45,899 nucleotides of DNA. Source: a virus. Its lineage: Duplodnaviria > Caudoviricetes. Shown piece by piece: positions 23,846 through 35,172 of the stretch. Both the position numbers and the translations under genes were made by a program. A model generated the notes under the pieces. That model searched no databases and was not told the origin of the DNA. It worked only from the letters and a program-made list of their open reading frames with translations. Each line of letters opens with the position of its first letter. Position 1 is the stretch's first letter. The stretch covers positions 1 through 45,899 of the IMG/VR virus record IMGVR_UViG_3300005323_000062. One strand, given 5' to 3'.

Positions 23846-24086
23846 TATACATTTCCCAAAACCACCCTATCTCAAAGAACCACCACCTTACCCCCGCCTG
23901 CACTCTTTTTTGGGACATTGGGGGGGCTTGGGTGCTGGTTGTGCGGGCGTTCTGTATTACGGGCGCATTGGTATTTGTAGTGTGATTATTTGTTCATACT
24001 ATTTGAGAGTATGTTAATGCTTGTAGTGTAGTAGGTAGATAGTGAATGAGAGAGAGAATAGAGGTATATATAATGTAAAAGAGAAT

Positions 24087-24350
24087 AGTATGAAAAAGTA
24101 TGAAAACAGTTTTAGCTTCCTTTGTTTGTTAAATAAAGCCTTGTCCTTCCTTGGTTTTAGTCTTTATATAGCAATGGTAATACTTCGCTGTTATGGTCTT
24201 TAGATGCTAAATCCTAAATCCTCCGTTTGCCAATCGGGGGTTTCTGGTGCTTATTTGACTTAAATGCTCTTATACCCTCAGTCCGTTTTAAGGGGTATTA
24301 CCGTCTGCGCTTCTAGTATTCCCATACTGTTTTTCATACTTCTTCATACT
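24087..24350. repeat. Inverted repeat of tandem AGTATGAA units; candidate origin or packaging locus
   Basis: agtatgaaaaagtatgaaaacagt (24087-24110) versus actgtttttcatacttcttcatact (24326-24350), in the non-coding divergence region. Confidence 0.6.
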
Positions 24351-24478
24351 TTTTATTTTGGCTTTTGGTTGTGCCTCTACTGGCTTATATATTGTATTAG
24401 TGGAAGTGTGGTTTAGTAGTGTTTATATACTTTGCTATATTGCTGTATTCGCCCTTTGTTGGGTGGAAGTGTATGAGA

Positions 24479-24643
24479 ATGGAAACGCAGGTGGTTGGTA
24501 GAGTGGATATATCGTCAATGCCGGTTGGCAGGTTCGTGCGTGAGTTTGACCGGTTGGGCATTTCTGTTAGTTTGGGTGCTTGTGTTGCGCCTAATGGCAA
24601 GGGTTCGGTGGTTGCGTCCATTGAGAGAGTGATGGTTATATGA
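24479..24643 (+). CDS. Small hypothetical protein
   Basis: METQVVGRVDI...; TTTATATA at ~24422 upstream; start uncertain. Confidence 0.5.
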   Translation: METQVVGRVDISSMPVGRFVREFDRLGISVSLGACVAPNGKGSVVASIERVMVI

Positions 24644-24756
24644 TTGGTTTCAGTTCCTTTGGTTCTGGTCAGTTGCAGGCTTGGGAAAAGAGGCGTAAGA
24701 GGCAGGGGGCGGCTAAAGCTAGGGCTTTGCGGGCTTTAGAGCGTCGGTTGCCTTAG
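24640..24756 (+). CDS. 38-aa basic peptide
   Basis: Not in track; ATGA overlap; MIGFSSFGSGQLQAWEKRRKRQGAAKARALRALERRLP*; followed by a long T-tract. Confidence 0.5.
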   Translation: MIGFSSFGSGQLQAWEKRRKRQGAAKARALRALERRLP

Positions 24757-24790
24757 TTTTTCTTTTTTCTCTTTTTCTTCTTCTTCTTTT
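24757..24790 (+). terminator. Oligo-U archaeal-type terminator
   Basis: ~34-nt T-rich pyrimidine tract directly after the stop codon. Confidence 0.6.
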
Positions 24791-25064
24791 GATTCTCTAA
24801 TTGTGTTCTAGCTGTCAGCGTTGGGCTTCTAGCTAGTTTCTTGCTGTTTTTGGTATAGCTGGCTGTTTGTTTTAGCCCCCTAGTGTTTGTTTTGGTTGGG
24901 TTGGGGTTGTTTGGTATAGACTTGTGGGGTGCTATTGGGGTTTTGCTTCTGTAATACAGAGCGCGAATGGTTTTTTGGGGTTTATATATTGGTTGTTTTG
25001 TTACTACTTTGTGGTAGTCGCGTTATTCTTTTTATATTGTGTTGTTTTTTTTTAGCTCGTGGGA

Positions 25065-25074
25065 TTTATAAATA
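25065..25074 (+). promoter_or_regulatory. TATA box upstream of the structured RNA region
   Basis: TTTATAAATA. Confidence 0.5.
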
Positions 25075-25099
25075 ACTGGTGGGTTTTTAAGTTTGTATG

Positions 25100-25905
25100 C
25101 TGAAAGTTTGTTTGCGATTGTTGAACCGGTCGCCCTGAGCGCGGGAAGCCAACCTTTCCGAGGCGTTAAAGGCTCGGTTCGATTCTCTTTGAGCGGTGCG
25201 GCCAACCCCCGCGATTGGTGGGGATTGTTGTGCGGCAGGCATTCGTGGGCTGTCTAGTGGTATAACTAGGTTTGCGTGCGTCTAGTTCGTGCGTAGGCAT
25301 TTGCAGGCTCTTTTGGGACTACAAAAGAAAAAGTCTTTTCGGGCTTTAGTATTTGCGTTCTTTTAGTGGCGAGCAGAGAAGGTAAGACCCTTGCAACTAG
25401 AAGGACTATTCGTCTATAGGCTTTGGATAGCTTGTAGGAGTTAGTAGCGTAGAACTCGCAACTCCGAATAGGGGTTTGGGATATGCTAACCCTGCGTATG
25501 GCTCTTTAGCTGGTAGCAACCGGCTTTGAGGGAGTGGTGCGCCTAATCACTTGGTTGATTAGGGTTAATGGTTAGTGCGAGCGTGTCAGCGAACTCTAAA
25601 ATAGTGACCCTAACGTCAATTTGGGTGGGTTTAGAGCGAGCAAGCGAAAGTAAGGTTCATTGACGGCGGGTAGTCTTTGCTTGAGTTTGGGCTGTTTGGT
25701 TTGAACGGCTAAATAGCTCGAACTCTACCATACTATATAGTTTAGTTTGATAAAGGCTAGACTATATAGTGACCTCTGGGGAAGAAGGGACAACAGTAGG
25801 GGCGAGTTTTCGGTAGCTAGATTTTCTATGCCTTGCAACAGAAAGGTGAAAAGCTACCAAATCACTCTTTAGCTGGTCATACTGGCTTGGGGTGGGATAG
25901 TGGTC
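25100..25905 (+). ncRNA. Candidate large (~800 nt) structured non-coding RNA
   Basis: No ORF >=60 aa; consecutive helices, many needing G-U pairs on the + strand (25357-25406, 25683-25725, 25731-25771, long-range 25289-97/25491-99); boundaries approximate. Confidence 0.6.
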
Positions 25906-25909
25906 TGAA

Positions 25910-26101
25910 ATGGATTACGACGGTGAAGGAAGAAGGAATAAGACCATCGAAGAAGTTGTTTCTGATGGGGTTAATAACATTATCATAGCGCCACTTATTG
26001 GTGGGCGTTATCTTGTAACAGCTACTTCCAGTAGGAATGGGGCGCAGGTTACTTATCGGAATAAGGAACAGCTTGTTTCGATGATTAAAAAACTCTTTTG
26101 A
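25910..26101 (+). CDS. Hypothetical protein
   Basis: 63 aa, followed by hairpin plus T-run. Confidence 0.6.
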   Translation: MDYDGEGRRNKTIEEVVSDGVNNIIIAPLIGGRYLVTATSSRNGAQVTYRNKEQLVSMIKKLF

Positions 26102-26109
26102 ATCCGTTT

Positions 26110-26129
26110 GGGGGCTTATGCCCTTTTTT
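26110..26129 (+). terminator. Hairpin plus U-tract
   Basis: GGGC-ttat-GCCC followed by TTTTTT. Confidence 0.6.
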
Positions 26130-26178
26130 AGTGTGAGGTTTTACTCGTCATGGGGTAGCTTCGCGGAAGTGGGTTTGA

Positions 26179-26346
26179 ATGGCCTATGCAGTGAATAAGG
26201 ATGGGCAGATAGTCATTACTCTGCCTAAGGGTGAGGGTAAGCCTAGCAAGTCGGGCAAGTCAATGATTCTTGACACAACTGGTGGGTTTGCTGACCTTGG
26301 GAATGGTCTTAAACTGTCCTACAACGTGATACGCGCTAAACAGTAA
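26179..26346 (+). CDS. 55-aa conserved-looking small protein (PSKSGKS...TTGG)
   Basis: Not in track; MAYAVNKDGQIVITLPKGEGKPSKSGKSMILDTTGGFADLGNGLKLSYNVIRAKQ*; followed by hairpin cttcttgg/ccaagaag and a T-run. Confidence 0.7.
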   Translation: MAYAVNKDGQIVITLPKGEGKPSKSGKSMILDTTGGFADLGNGLKLSYNVIRAKQ

Positions 26347-26457
26347 AGAACGCGCGTGCATTCTTCTTGGCTTTACCAAGAAGTAATTTTCTTCTTTTTC
26401 ATGCGTCTAAAAGGACAACCGGCAGTGCGAGACTGTAGGGGGCGGTTGTAGAAGGGT

Positions 26458-27149: not shown

Positions 27150-27285
27150 GGATATTAGGTTGTGTCCTTTGTGTAGTAAGCCTTATGATGTTGATAGTGA
27201 TGCGGCGGGAGTTGCTAGTAAGTATATTTGTCGTAAGTGTGAAAAGAAAGCTGAACGTGAAGGTCGGTTGAGAATAGCTCATTAA
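27133..27285 (+). CDS. 50-aa zinc-finger protein
   Basis: Not in track; CPLC...CRKC. Confidence 0.6.
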   Translation: MNPELKDIRLCPLCSKPYDVDSDAAGVASKYICRKCEKKAEREGRLRIAH

Positions 27286-27299
27286 GCGGGTGGTAGTGA

Positions 27300-28421: not shown

Positions 28422-28811
28422 GTTCAGATGCTTATTCTCAGAGGGGAACGTGGCGATGGTGTAAGGTGGTGTGAGGCTTTCGCTCTGTCAAGTAGTTGAA
28501 GAAAGAAGGGTGACTTAAACCTGTGGGAGTTGGGTTGCTTTTTAAAGTATTTGGCGAAGATGGATTGTTAGCGATAGCATTGCGTAGCACGCCCAACAGC
28601 GGTCTTTGCGGCTTAGCCGGTTACGACCAAGTTGGGGTGGTTTCAGTTCGAGTCTGAACGGCGCGTTCTCTTTTGGGGGTTCGTGGTTCTTGGTGGCGCA
28701 ACACCGTGTTGTCAAGAGCTAGTTTATATAATGTATTATGTGATGCGCGTGTATTGGCACACGCGTATTGTTTGGGTGGTGGGTGTAAGCCGCCCAAACC
28801 GCGATTATTGG

Positions 28812-28893
28812 GTTGGTGTAGCAAATTGGATAATGCGAGTGGCTCAAGACCTCTTGCCTTAGGGCTTAGCAGGTTCGATTCCTGCCACCAACA
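28812..28893 (+). tRNA. trnL: tRNA-Leu (anticodon CAA), no encoded CCA
   Basis: Acceptor GTTGGTG/CACCAAC-A; D arm GCA..TGG..TGC; anticodon arm AGTGG-CTCAAGA-CCTCT (one U-U); long variable arm; T arm GCAGG-TTCGATT-CCTGC; TTTATATAA at 28723. Confidence 0.9.
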
Positions 28894-30703: not shown

Positions 30704-31987
30704 ATGAAAAGCGAAGTGAGTTTGGGTTGTGACCCAGAGTTTCTGATACTCGCTAAGGGTAGCACTGCGAGTAATGCGACCGTGTTACCAGCAGACCATT
30801 ATTTTAATGGTTCGATGGAAGCGGCGGTTGGTCACGATGGTCATTCTTCGACAGGAGAGTTGCGACCAAAACCAGCGGATTCGGCGGCAGAGTTGGTTGC
30901 TAACATTAGGCCGTTGATTCAAGAAATTTACAAGACGGTGCGTAAAGACGCCAAGTTTGGTTTGGTTTCTGCGGGTAACGGTGTGCGTGACCCGATTGGT
31001 GGTCATATTCACTTTGGTTATGTTGATGAACCAAGCGAATTCACTAAGCAGTGTTTGGATTTGTTCTTTAGCATTCCGTTGGCTTTGATTGAACAAGACC
31101 CGTATAATAAGAAACGCAGAACAGGTGACGGTTATGGTCAGCTTGCTACTACTAACTCTAGCGGCATTCGGATTCAATCTGCTTATGGATTCGAGTATCG
31201 TCCTCCCGCTAGTTGGTTAGTGTCTAAAGATATTGCTCTGTCAGCATTGTCTTTGGCTCACTGGGTTTGCGAACAATCTTATATGAAAGGAAGTCCCGCG
31301 TATAAGGCAATGCAGGTTGGAGTTGGAAAGATTACTGACTGGAATAATCTTAATTCTAAGTTTAAGAACGCGGATAAGACTTACTTGAAGCAAATTTATG
31401 ATTCACACATTAAAGGAGTAATAGACCTAGCACCCGACGAAGTTAAAGCTAACACTAAGACTTTGCGTGGAATGATTGACCGGCGTGAGTCTTGGAATGA
31501 ATGGCAAGACTTATCCGTTGGGTGGGGCTTGTCTTTTAATGGTGCGGTCGAAATTCAACCTTTCAATTTTGCTCACCGCGTCTTTGGCTTGCGTAGCATT
31601 GAAGCGCAGGTTAATACGCCGTTGATGGTTAATGAGGCTTTCAAGCCAATTAACATTGTTGGCGTTAGTGATTCTAATGCTAAGCGAGATGATTATACTG
31701 GCGCGATGTTGGTTTCAAGTAACTTGGCGGCTGGTGGCGAAAAGAGCGACTTGTTTAAGTCTTTCGCGTCATCTTTTGAAGATGCGGATTTGGAAGAAGA
31801 CCCGCTGTTGCCTGAGAACACTATTTCAATCGCCGAACATATCCGATACAATGAAAAGAGCCGCGCTTGTTTGGCTGAGTTCTTGACTAAATATCGTGCT
31901 AGTATGAAGGCGGCAGTAGAATTGAATGGGGCGGGTAAGCCTAAGAAAGTTCGCGCTAGCCGCCATGCGGCTTGTGGTAATGCGTAG
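30704..31987 (+). CDS. phiEco32-like COOH-NH2 ligase (glutamine-synthetase-fold amidoligase)
   Basis: LGCDPEF, GHDG...GELRP, PIGGHIHFG, RR..GYG, YGFEYR..SWL motifs. Confidence 0.85.
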   Translation: MKSEVSLGCDPEFLILAKGSTASNATVLPADHYFNGSMEAAVGHDGHSSTGELRPKPADSAAELVANIRPLIQEIYKTVRKDAKFGLVSAGNGVRDPIGGHIHFGYVDEPSEFTKQCLDLFFSIPLALIEQDPYNKKRRTGDGYGQLATTNSSGIRIQSAYGFEYRPPASWLVSKDIALSALSLAHWVCEQSYMKGSPAYKAMQVGVGKITDWNNLNSKFKNADKTYLKQIYDSHIKGVIDLAPDEVKANTKTLRGMIDRRESWNEWQDLSVGWGLSFNGAVEIQPFNFAHRVFGLRSIEAQVNTPLMVNEAFKPINIVGVSDSNAKRDDYTGAMLVSSNLAAGGEKSDLFKSFASSFEDADLEEDPLLPENTISIAEHIRYNEKSRACLAEFLTKYRASMKAAVELNGAGKPKKVRASRHAACGNA

Positions 31988-32002
31988 AGAGAGTGATTAT
32001 GT

Positions 32003-33364
32003 ATGTGTGGTATAGCTGGTTTGATTAAGTTGAAAGGTTCTACTCTTGACACCAAGACGCAACAACTATTGTTAGAGCGTCTTTTGTATGGCATTGAACC
32101 GCGAGGGGGGCAAGCTAGTGGGATTGGTTGTTACTGGTTTGGTTCTGAACGCAAAAGTCATTGGGCTAAGCAAGCGGCTGGCGCAGAGCGTTTCATTCAA
32201 TCCAAGTTCTTCGTTCAGGCAGCGACTATGGACGCTCACGCGTTCTTCTTGCACTCTAGGTTAGCGACGACGGGTAGTGTTGATAATCTTAATAACAATC
32301 ACCCCGTTCTGACTGAGCATTGTTCTCTGGTTCATAATGGCACTTTTTCTCAATGGAATTATAATAAGACTATGGAACGGGATGGTTTGAAACCAATGGC
32401 TAAAACTGAGGTTGATTCTCAGATTATTGGCTTGATGCACGATAAGTTTAAAGACGCTCGTGAAGCAGTCAAACACTTGGACGGTTCTTTTGCTTATGCT
32501 TTGTTTGATGACCGTTATAACCGCATTCAAATCGTAAAGCACTCTAATCCGGTTGTCGTGGCTTTGATTGAGGAGTTGAAGATAGTCTTATTCGCTAGCA
32601 CTAGGGAAGCTATTGAGTATGCTATTTGCGAGTTTGAATGCAAGTATAACTTCTTTGTTGTTCGTCGTCCTCGTTGGCAAGCGAATTATATTGAAATGAA
32701 GGACGATACGCTGCTTGAGTTTAACTTTACTAAGGACTCTTTCGTGGCGGATTATGTCCAGCCGGATAGTATAAAGAGTTCTCAGTCAGGTGCTTGTAAT
32801 GGCTGGTATGATGCTAATGGAAACTTTCATGCTTATTGGGAAGGCGAGGATGACGAGTTAGGAACACCATATCGCGGTTCTAACAATCAGACGATTCATG
32901 TTAAAAAAAACAGCGAAGATGGGTCTAGCGGAGTTCTTGTAGATAAAGTTATTAGGGTTATAAGGAATAGTGAGTTGCCGCCAAATCGGTTTGAGATTTC
33001 TCGCAACTTGGTTGATGATGAAGCCGGAAACCCGTTTTTAACAATGCTTAATTTGTGTTTCAAACAAGATATTAAGCAGGGCGTGTTGGGTGGGGCTAAA
33101 GGTTTTATCGTCACGCTTGATGATAAGGTTGATAATGTTGTTCGTTGTAATCGTATTTGGATGAAGCGTAAGGATGTTTGTGGGCGTTTCTCTGAAATTA
33201 TGGATACGATGGAAGCGATGATTGGTTTTGAAGATGAGGAAGCTAGAGCTGAAGAAGCTATGACTGAAACGGATATTAGTAAAGCGTTGGACGAAGAAGC
33301 GCAAGCGGCTTTGAGTGCTAGTGCGGATGCTGAAATTATGGAACAACAAGTAACTAATAACTAA
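32003..33364 (+). CDS. Class II (Ntn) glutamine amidotransferase with acidic C-terminal extension
   Basis: MCGIAG, RG..ASG, HSRLAT.G, NNHP, VHNG, EVDS, LDGSFA, FAST. Confidence 0.9.
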   Translation: MCGIAGLIKLKGSTLDTKTQQLLLERLLYGIEPRGGQASGIGCYWFGSERKSHWAKQAAGAERFIQSKFFVQAATMDAHAFFLHSRLATTGSVDNLNNNHPVLTEHCSLVHNGTFSQWNYNKTMERDGLKPMAKTEVDSQIIGLMHDKFKDAREAVKHLDGSFAYALFDDRYNRIQIVKHSNPVVVALIEELKIVLFASTREAIEYAICEFECKYNFFVVRRPRWQANYIEMKDDTLLEFNFTKDSFVADYVQPDSIKSSQSGACNGWYDANGNFHAYWEGEDDELGTPYRGSNNQTIHVKKNSEDGSSGVLVDKVIRVIRNSELPPNRFEISRNLVDDEAGNPFLTMLNLCFKQDIKQGVLGGAKGFIVTLDDKVDNVVRCNRIWMKRKDVCGRFSEIMDTMEAMIGFEDEEARAEEAMTETDISKALDEEAQAALSASADAEIMEQQVTNN

Positions 33365-34149: not shown

Positions 34150-34677
34150 GTGGCTTTCAAAGTAAGAAAATTGCCCGTCCCGAAGATGATTAAGTGTTAT
34201 GAAGATATACCTAACGGGTTTAATAGCACTTTCACGGAACGCATTGACACTATGAATGAGCATTTGGATTGGCAGAACTCGGCTACGGGTAATGTTAGGC
34301 GACAATTGTTCTTTTATAGGGCGGTTAGACCTAATTATAGAGCGTCTTTTGATAGTTATAATGAACGAACAGGTAATAGTTCGAGTAGTTCGTTTTTGAA
34401 CGAGTATGAGTTAATGGTTGGTTTTAATAGCCGTGTTGAACCTAATCGTTCTGGGGCTTTGAGTTTGGATTATCCTGTTTGGGCTAAGAAACCGTTTTTG
34501 ATTGTGATGAAGGAAGATATTATCAAAGATAAGAAAAAGAAAGAAGCAACTGCGACTAGCGTTGGGGCTGAAACCGTAACGACAGATGAAGGTATTGTGT
34601 TGTCTATGCCAAGATTTGTTTATGGTGCAGTTACCGACGAGCCGAGCGGTTTTACTGGCACGAGTATCAATAGGTAG
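34150..34677 (+). CDS. Hypothetical protein (starts MAFKVRK, possibly a truncated tag)
   Basis: GAGGTG RBS; KPFLIV segment recalls RPFLII/SPFVVL of tag-family members. Confidence 0.7.
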   Translation: MAFKVRKLPVPKMIKCYEDIPNGFNSTFTERIDTMNEHLDWQNSATGNVRRQLFFYRAVRPNYRASFDSYNERTGNSSSSSFLNEYELMVGFNSRVEPNRSGALSLDYPVWAKKPFLIVMKEDIIKDKKKKEATATSVGAETVTTDEGIVLSMPRFVYGAVTDEPSGFTGTSINR

Positions 34678-34813
34678 GCTATGCCAGACCCAGAAGAACC
34701 TTAAACTGTTACTATCGTGTAGTAGTTTCGGTAGGTATATATTCAATCGTATGCATTATATTCATTGCCCGTTTTTTGGGGTAGTTAAAAAAAACAAAGT
34801 AGGTGAGAACGGA

Positions 34814-35074
34814 ATGGCGAAGAAATTCGGCTTGTCCATATACGGACGGGCTAAGAGTAAGTCGGAAAAGGGGAACACGACTCTCGCCCTCGTTGCGAAC
34901 AGCAAGAGGGGCGGGGTAAGCGTGGTCGCTGTTGACGACAAGGGGGCTATCATGAAGAATGGTTGGCTCGTAACTTTCTGTGGAGATGGTAAGATTTACC
35001 GCCACAAGAAGGTTGACAAGGCACTTGGTTTCGCTCTTAAGAACAAGAGCGCAGTCCTGATGAAGAAACTCTAA
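34814..35074 (+). CDS. Basic small protein (paralog of 30319-30624)
   Basis: AGGTGA RBS, MAKKFGL...; followed by long hairpin 35098-35138. Confidence 0.75.
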   Translation: MAKKFGLSIYGRAKSKSEKGNTTLALVANSKRGGVSVVAVDDKGAIMKNGWLVTFCGDGKIYRHKKVDKALGFALKNKSAVLMKKL

Positions 35075-35172
35075 GGGCTAAGAACTAGTGCTTTTTTGGG
35101 TTGGGGGTAATCTCTCGTTTGAGTGTTATCTCCAACCCCCTAATTCTATTTCTTTATGGTGGGTGTTTTTGT

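Follow-up and report, generated by a model that had tools for sequence, protein, structure and literature searches.

Large structured viral RNAs are so far known from bacteria, where GOLLD (over 800 nt) and ROOL (about 600 nt) are, according to the accessible parts of two accounts, multi-helix viral RNAs of unknown function with a tRNA gene nearby (bioRxiv 10.1101/2024.12.08.627333; PMC12990946). A literature search of mostly open papers found no large structured RNA described in an archaeal virus, and the accessible part of a further preprint (bioRxiv 10.64898/2026.10.21.760802) mentions neither GOLLD, ROOL nor haloviruses. In the Haloferacalesvirus HF2, an ORF-free region (311–1969) is located near the left genome end; the available portions of the halovirus genome papers (PMC8707807, PMC7230728, PMC8651126) do not describe this region as an RNA. 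The locus analyzed here, at 25100–25905 of a groundwater virus, is placed in the same way: it opens the early arm and follows a TATA-like box. A sequence-only reading had proposed it as a new large non-coding RNA of an archaeal virus. A large structured RNA from the + strand is still the best reading, the promoter is of archaeal type and the virus is likely archaeal, but the 5′ 160 nt may belong to a small gene.

The whole stretch of DNA that was analyzed, hereafter the window, is a complete record of 45,899 bases with terminal repeats, and the virus is present in three groundwater DNA runs; the runs listed for it include none of RNA, which speaks neither for nor against transcription. Its late arm (terminase, portal, SU10-type capsid, tail) extends leftward from about 23830 and its early arm rightward from about 24400, with a GC skew flip near 24000. 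The searches run returned no close virus relative (terminase ≤39–40%, capsid ≤75%), and a search with a 55-aa neighbour protein matched that protein alone. Judging from the sequence, an archaeal host is likely, because the window encodes an Hjc resolvase (Pfam), contains TATA-like boxes and has the halovirus HCTV-2 (24%) as its only annotated capsid relative; Hafunaviridae did not appear in the capsid search. Host assignment via the tRNA of the window was rejected, as the 11 matching genomes among 301 were only 76–86% identical over part of the gene. This tRNA-Leu(CAA) (28812–28893, + strand; ARAGORN) lies 2.9 kb downstream of the RNA stretch, in a segment that also holds a TATA-like box and two hairpins (28723–28893, + strand).

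Several further observations concern the genome as a whole. At the late/early junction, 23990–24350, inverted repeats (TAGTATG/CATACTA) accompany a GA-rich run and possibly mark a genome end or origin; look-alikes of these signals occupy the same junction in a capsid relative (L032:11500–11960). A pair of phiEco32-like COOH.NH2 ligase and class II glutamine amidotransferase is encoded at 30704–33364 (+ strand) of this likely archaeal virus. A 155-kb metagenome contig (L062, L064, L065) carries the RNA stretch three times, 45,776 bases apart, and is likely an assembly concatemer of the virus.

The candidate RNA falls into the longest part of the window without an ORF of at least 70 aa (24644–26457). 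At the matching junction of the capsid relatives L032 and L036, no ORF-free stretch is longer than 455 and 300 nt, respectively. The three + strand frames of 25100–25905 contain 18, 23 and 14 stops, and about 650 nt of this tightly packed genome are free of any ORF above 41 codons (Table 1). The stretch had been described as free of ORFs throughout; nothing in it exceeds 54 codons, but an ORF of that length with a gene-like codon score covers the first 160 nt. Among 19 early genes the score spans −0.074 to 0.218, which includes the value found here, and an SD-like GGTG is present upstream; by these sequence features 25093–25257 may be a small gene instead of RNA.

The TATA-like box reported earlier at 25065, TTTATAAATA, is present there. 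With the spacing seen in HF2, where a TATA-like box lies 28 nt before the start of the region, transcription is predicted to start at about 25091–25097. The assignment of this box as the promoter is putative, since several further TATA-like boxes occur in 24000–25100. At the 3′ side, no terminator-like site is found between the RNA core and the ORF at 25910, the first being at 26110–26130, so the RNA would be either cut from that transcript or its leader.

Table 1. Features in and around the candidate RNA (positions in the window)
Feature	Position	Strand	Basis
TATA-like box TTTATAAATA	25065..25074	+	sequence
54-codon ORF, TTG start, over the 5′ part	25093..25257	+	codon score 0.076
Candidate large structured RNA, widest limits	25097..25905	+	folding z, no Rfam match
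5′ helical domain	25120..25183	+	local z −2.3; 12-nt exact match with one halovirus
Well-folded core	25250..25905	+	z −5.25, 0 of 30 shuffles as stable
Bulged hairpin, module copy 1	25494..25542	+	z −4.70, 0 of 200 shuffles; missed in the sequence-only reading
20 nt identical to left-end region of HRTV-24-type Haloferacalesvirus	25514..25533	+	profile and exact match
Hairpin, loop 25614–20 complementary to 25659–65	25594..25665	+	complementarity; nested fold z +0.82
19-bp hairpin, 6 G-U	25683..25725	+	p 0.98
18-bp hairpin, 4 G-U	25731..25771	+	p 0.97
Module copy 2	25862..25895	+	hairpin z −3.08; missed in the sequence-only reading
First early ORF, 63 aa, then hairpin and T-run	25910..26130	+	first such site 3′ of the RNA
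NCRF-tag ORFs	27469, 28912, 29276, 29628, 29975, 33378, 35520, 36595, 36800; looser: 26869, 33757, 34153, 42565		

On the + strand, 25100–25905 folds with −309.5 kcal/mol (z −5.12, 20 shuffles), compared to z −2.56 (20 shuffles) on the − strand and −2.30 on the + strand with DNA parameters. With the two long hairpins left out, 25250–25680 has z −4.64, and for 25280–25680 the values are −4.23 on the + and −0.04 on the − strand. On either strand, no local fold of the genome is stronger than that of 25673–25792 (z −7.9). At the two ends of the stretch, 25097–25260 folds at shuffle level (z −0.35, 37 of 100 shuffles as good) and 25772–25905 has z −0.92. Among 17 control windows of 656 nt, a coding one at 34400 reached z −6.35 (10 shuffles) as against −5.25 (30 shuffles) for the core; since it folds as strongly, z alone does not set the stretch apart. 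The earlier expectation of folding beyond shuffles thus holds for the stretch as a whole and for the + over the − strand, but not for its first 160 nt, and one coding control equals it. The region is real, strand-specific, strongly folding and gene-free. The coding segment around the control (34400–35170, + strand; z −6.35 and −6.58) ends in a long hairpin near 35095–35140. A capsid-relative contig has a further segment near its end that is very stably folded whichever strand is considered (L036:14579–14756; z −7 to −8).

Within the stretch, all helices named in the sequence-only reading can pair where it placed them; the 19-bp and 18-bp stems are complete, and 16 of 17 pairs form in 25357–73/25390–406. 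Its larger architecture was not confirmed: the long-range helix 25289–97/25491–99 has a pair probability of about 0 and costs 8.7 kcal/mol when forced, and the predicted ensemble does not support the multibranch domain as drawn. The 17-bp stem 25357–73/25390–406 (p about 0.55) competes with a 14-bp helix 25401–14/25665–78 (p about 0.45). In 25594–25665 the nested fold is no better than shuffles, and the complementary segments 25614–20 and 25659–65 could possibly form a pseudoknot. Of two minor letters in DNA run X1 (depth 21/339), 25684 A>G would leave pairing intact through a G-U, and 25671 T>G would disrupt pairing in the 14-bp helix; they point in opposite directions, are possibly sequencing errors near hairpins and were not taken as evidence. 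A second spot with small variant contigs in this run is located at 27209–27298.

The many G-U pairs had been taken to speak for an RNA. This argument is weaker than it had been made: in 12 strand-neutral stems the excess of G-T over A-C (28:9) is mostly due to base composition, which alone expects 2.2:1, though the two long hairpins have 10 G-T and no A-C.

These results bear on the possibility that there is no single RNA at all, and that the small gene at 25093–25257 is followed by local hairpins in a G/T-rich spacer, with the halovirus match described below being due to chance. The shuffle-level folding of the 5′ part (z −0.35), its gene-like codon score, the good folding of early-arm coding windows (one at z −6.35), a G-U excess close to composition and the lack of a homologue in any collection searched would all agree with this. 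We nevertheless consider it unlikely, given 650 nt without an ORF above 41 codons in a tightly packed genome, a z-score of −4.6 for 25250–25680 on the + strand only, the duplication of a hairpin and a probability of about 1 in 1000 or lower for the halovirus match.

A signal at the DNA level near the genome end, acting in ejection stop, packaging or replication via single-stranded hairpins, appears very unlikely to us. The fold is strand-specific and much weaker with DNA parameters (z −2.3), and the end-like repeats are found elsewhere, at 23990–24350, and are common to L032, which is without such a stretch. What speaks for a DNA signal is the closeness of the strand switch (about 24000, 1 kb away), the position of the HF2 region next to the terminal repeat and, as far as the available account goes, the T5 injection stop, which is a cis site in the left-end region.

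Compared to the Rfam covariance models, the window matched only tRNA at gathering score, and two chance rows (E 3.7 and 9.7) were added at E up to 10. GOLLD and ROOL, which the sequence-only reading had brought up, did not match even at E 10, and membership in either family was therefore dropped. Searches for OLE, ribozymes, group I/II introns, RNase P, SRP and tmRNA (Rfam models, ARAGORN) gave no match either. We regard the stretch as probably specifying a large non-coding RNA that falls into no catalogued family.

Ribozyme activity or self-splicing as an intron is highly improbable: no Rfam ribozyme or intron matched at E up to 10, a comparison by eye with the pistol, twister, hammerhead and group I/II motifs showed no fit, and no gene is interrupted. 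The possible pseudoknot 25614–20/25659–65 and an annotated hammerhead elsewhere in HF2 would be compatible with it. Another possibility is self-assembly into a multimeric RNA-only cage of the kind formed by GOLLD and ROOL, which are marked by covarying pseudoknots and kissing loops. The stretch shares their size class and viral origin, a tRNA gene lies at a distance of 2.9 kb, and several of its loops are 4-nt palindromes or can pair over 6–7 nt with segments elsewhere in the stretch. Complementarities this short are, however, expected by chance, and with no Rfam likeness at hand we regard a cage as quite unlikely.

No full-length homologue turned up in the phage and plasmid collections, in 18 related viral records, in the 401 genomes from a single archaeal phylum or with six pattern scans. 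Specifically, blastn in phages returned five records (best E 0.9), the plasmid search returned none, the 18 viral records reached by terminase or capsid yielded three short chance matches, the 401 genomes 17 scattered short ones, and nhmmer detected no homologue in 25 loci. The pseudoknot pattern hit four loci, none resembling the RNA, and the hairpin pattern one coding chance match. Haloviruses were reached with the module 19-mer (four loci: three Haloferacalesvirus, one chance), the 5′ junction (12 loci: five haloviruses, seven without likeness) and a two-block pattern, which recovered HRTV-10 only. The 20-mer, scanned against metagenomes, hit five loci, of which three were the virus itself, one was of halovirus type and one was a coding chance match (L063).

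The stretch carries a bulged hairpin twice. Within the whole RNA, the helix of copy 1 forms with probabilities of 0.93–0.98. Copy 2 has the same 13-nt 5′ strand (direct repeat 25502–14/25865–77), and its 3′ strand is changed with pairing kept; a repeat of this length occurs in 21 of 3000 shuffles.

For comparison with Haloferacalesvirus, we took the left-end region from HF2 (549–1960, about 1400 nt, G+C-rich) and 12 relatives; an alignment of 12 rows contains long-range covarying helices. A profile built from the first seven regions, before any likeness had been seen, has its best match in the 45.9-kb window at 25514–25533 (E 0.09). These 20 nt are identical in HRTV-24, which is one of 12 halovirus rows, and 13 nt are identical in six of 12; the 20-mer spans positions that vary among the rows. 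None of 5000 shuffles reached an exact match of 17 nt, 694 windows from 19 other loci did not exceed 15, and the next best of 112 windows of the same genome had 17 nt. In gapped local alignment the score was 41, with 38 for the best of 600 shuffles, which places the fair probability of the match at about 1 in 1000 or lower.

In the MAFFT alignment a second, collinear block (25494–25507) falls on an upstream block that is invariant in the haloviruses, with 11 of 14 letters matching; this two-block pattern, which was written after the fact, occurs in all 13 halovirus rows and the window. Next to the 20-mer, 10 halovirus rows have a stem that pairs through two-sided changes at two of its four pairs and is enclosed by a 5-pair helix with 99.2% of 126 cells paired, a structure picked by eye from that alignment. 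The window carries a matching bulged helix with counterparts of the invariant blocks and of this stem; by inspection it keeps three of the stem's four pairs, capped by a 4-nt loop.

Beyond this helix the likeness fades. The profile match is limited to 20–28 nt rather than being collinear over the full length, and among 47 halovirus blocks of 60 columns the only two with top matches on the RNA + strand both correspond to the 20-mer element. Two covariance models, R1 and R2, were built after the likeness had been seen. For the three-way junction that follows the promoter in the halovirus 5′ region, the best window match of R1 is 25120–25183, a weak resemblance (13.1 bits, E 0.1), and a 290-column profile of the halovirus 5′ region has no match there. 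Model R2 scored 13.4 bits in the window and was set aside; it adds nothing, because an unrelated HRTV-7 hairpin scores nearly alike (13.1 bits). The window would adopt the larger halovirus-like junction only at a cost of 22 kcal/mol. The module is absent from HRTV-7 and HSTV-2, of the same family as Haloferacalesvirus, and no third lineage with it was found in the searches run. Before their first early gene, HRTV-7 (L107) and HSTV-2 (L108) have an ORF-poor, hairpin-rich stretch of about 1.1–1.5 kb, which matches neither the Haloferacalesvirus profile nor the window. Derivation of the 20-mer from a host RNA, or complementarity to one, was also considered and rejected, as 18 of 151 genomes matched (≤3 mismatches), mostly once each and near the level of the reversed control. 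Since nothing beyond the helix aligns, we put shared descent of the window and halovirus helices, as judged from sequence, at about even odds.

With the first terminator-like site after the core at 26110–26130, past the ORF at 25910, the question arises of whether the RNA is a free molecule or a very long structured 5′ leader, acting in cis on the stability or translation of the first early mRNA. Archaeal leaders need far less than 800 nt, and here 800 nt would stand in front of merely a 63-aa gene. For a leader, the HF2 region likewise ends 9 nt before its first CDS, and in the supplement of the HF2 study (Table S4), as far as it is accessible, transcript F1 was amplified by RT-PCR from 1855, inside the left-end region, through the first CDS (PMC8707807). 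The same table names 1855 as the most 5′ primer of F1 despite listing one at 1712 (PMC8707807); in our reading this would fit a cut or block between them. Overall, a cis-acting leader seems rather unlikely.

Taken together, the evidence makes it likely that a functional RNA is made at this locus, from 25250–25905 or from 25097–25905. As for its role, we favour an immediate-early structured RNA that serves as a protein-binding scaffold or decoy for a conserved archaeal host factor, with a probability of roughly 0.45. This reading is suggested by the bulge-conserved short helix, which is present twice and perhaps shared across distant hosts and which resembles a host-factor site. The host polymerase would start near 25091–25097 from the TATA box at 25065, making the RNA the first transcript. 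Its ends would be at about 25095 and 25905; probably it would either be released by cleavage from a transcript that continues through the first small gene to 26130 or run on into that gene. The twice-carried bulged helix would then bind the host factor.

The arginine-rich NCRF tags, which had been proposed as ligands of the RNA, do exist: the peptide M-x-N-C-R-F-(H-K or R-V or H-R)-R opens the products of at least nine small ORFs in the early arm, and the tag looks kept as a peptide because synonymous codons vary. Nothing, however, ties it to the RNA. The NCRF-tag proteins scanned belong to no Pfam or PHROGs family, and a DNA pattern for one NCRF form retrieved no record from the viral collection, which included the haloviruses that share the helix. 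A search with an NCRF protein returned the query itself, a 123-aa protein, likely a paralogue of it within the same virus, and one weak match.

With respect to known systems, the candidate resembles GOLLD and ROOL in being a large, multi-helix RNA of viral origin and differs from them in lacking any Rfam likeness and in its likely archaeal host; it too has a tRNA gene in its surroundings, though at 2.9 kb instead of adjacent. The Haloferacalesvirus region corresponds to it in position, with both following a TATA-like box as the opening element of the early arm and adjoining the first CDS, and in a single bulged helix, where 20 nt are identical and a second block is collinear. In contrast, that region is about 1400 nt long and G+C-rich, as opposed to 650–810 nt for the window RNA; its helix carries a further stem in place of the 4-nt loop; the window has two copies of the module, and the rest of the halovirus region does not align. 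The viruses are otherwise unrelated in the searches run. More speculatively, and with somewhat less confidence than in the host-factor role, we propose that archaeal tailed viruses of unrelated lineages and habitats, namely the salt-lake myoviruses and this groundwater virus, begin infection by making giant structured RNAs with a common, conserved bulged-helix module for a conserved host factor, which would constitute an undescribed RNA superfamily. If so, it is testable in the cultured viruses HF1, HF2 and HRTV-24, and if the shared helix is homologous, it marks the functional core and moves the tests from an uncultured virus to cultured haloviruses with tractable hosts.
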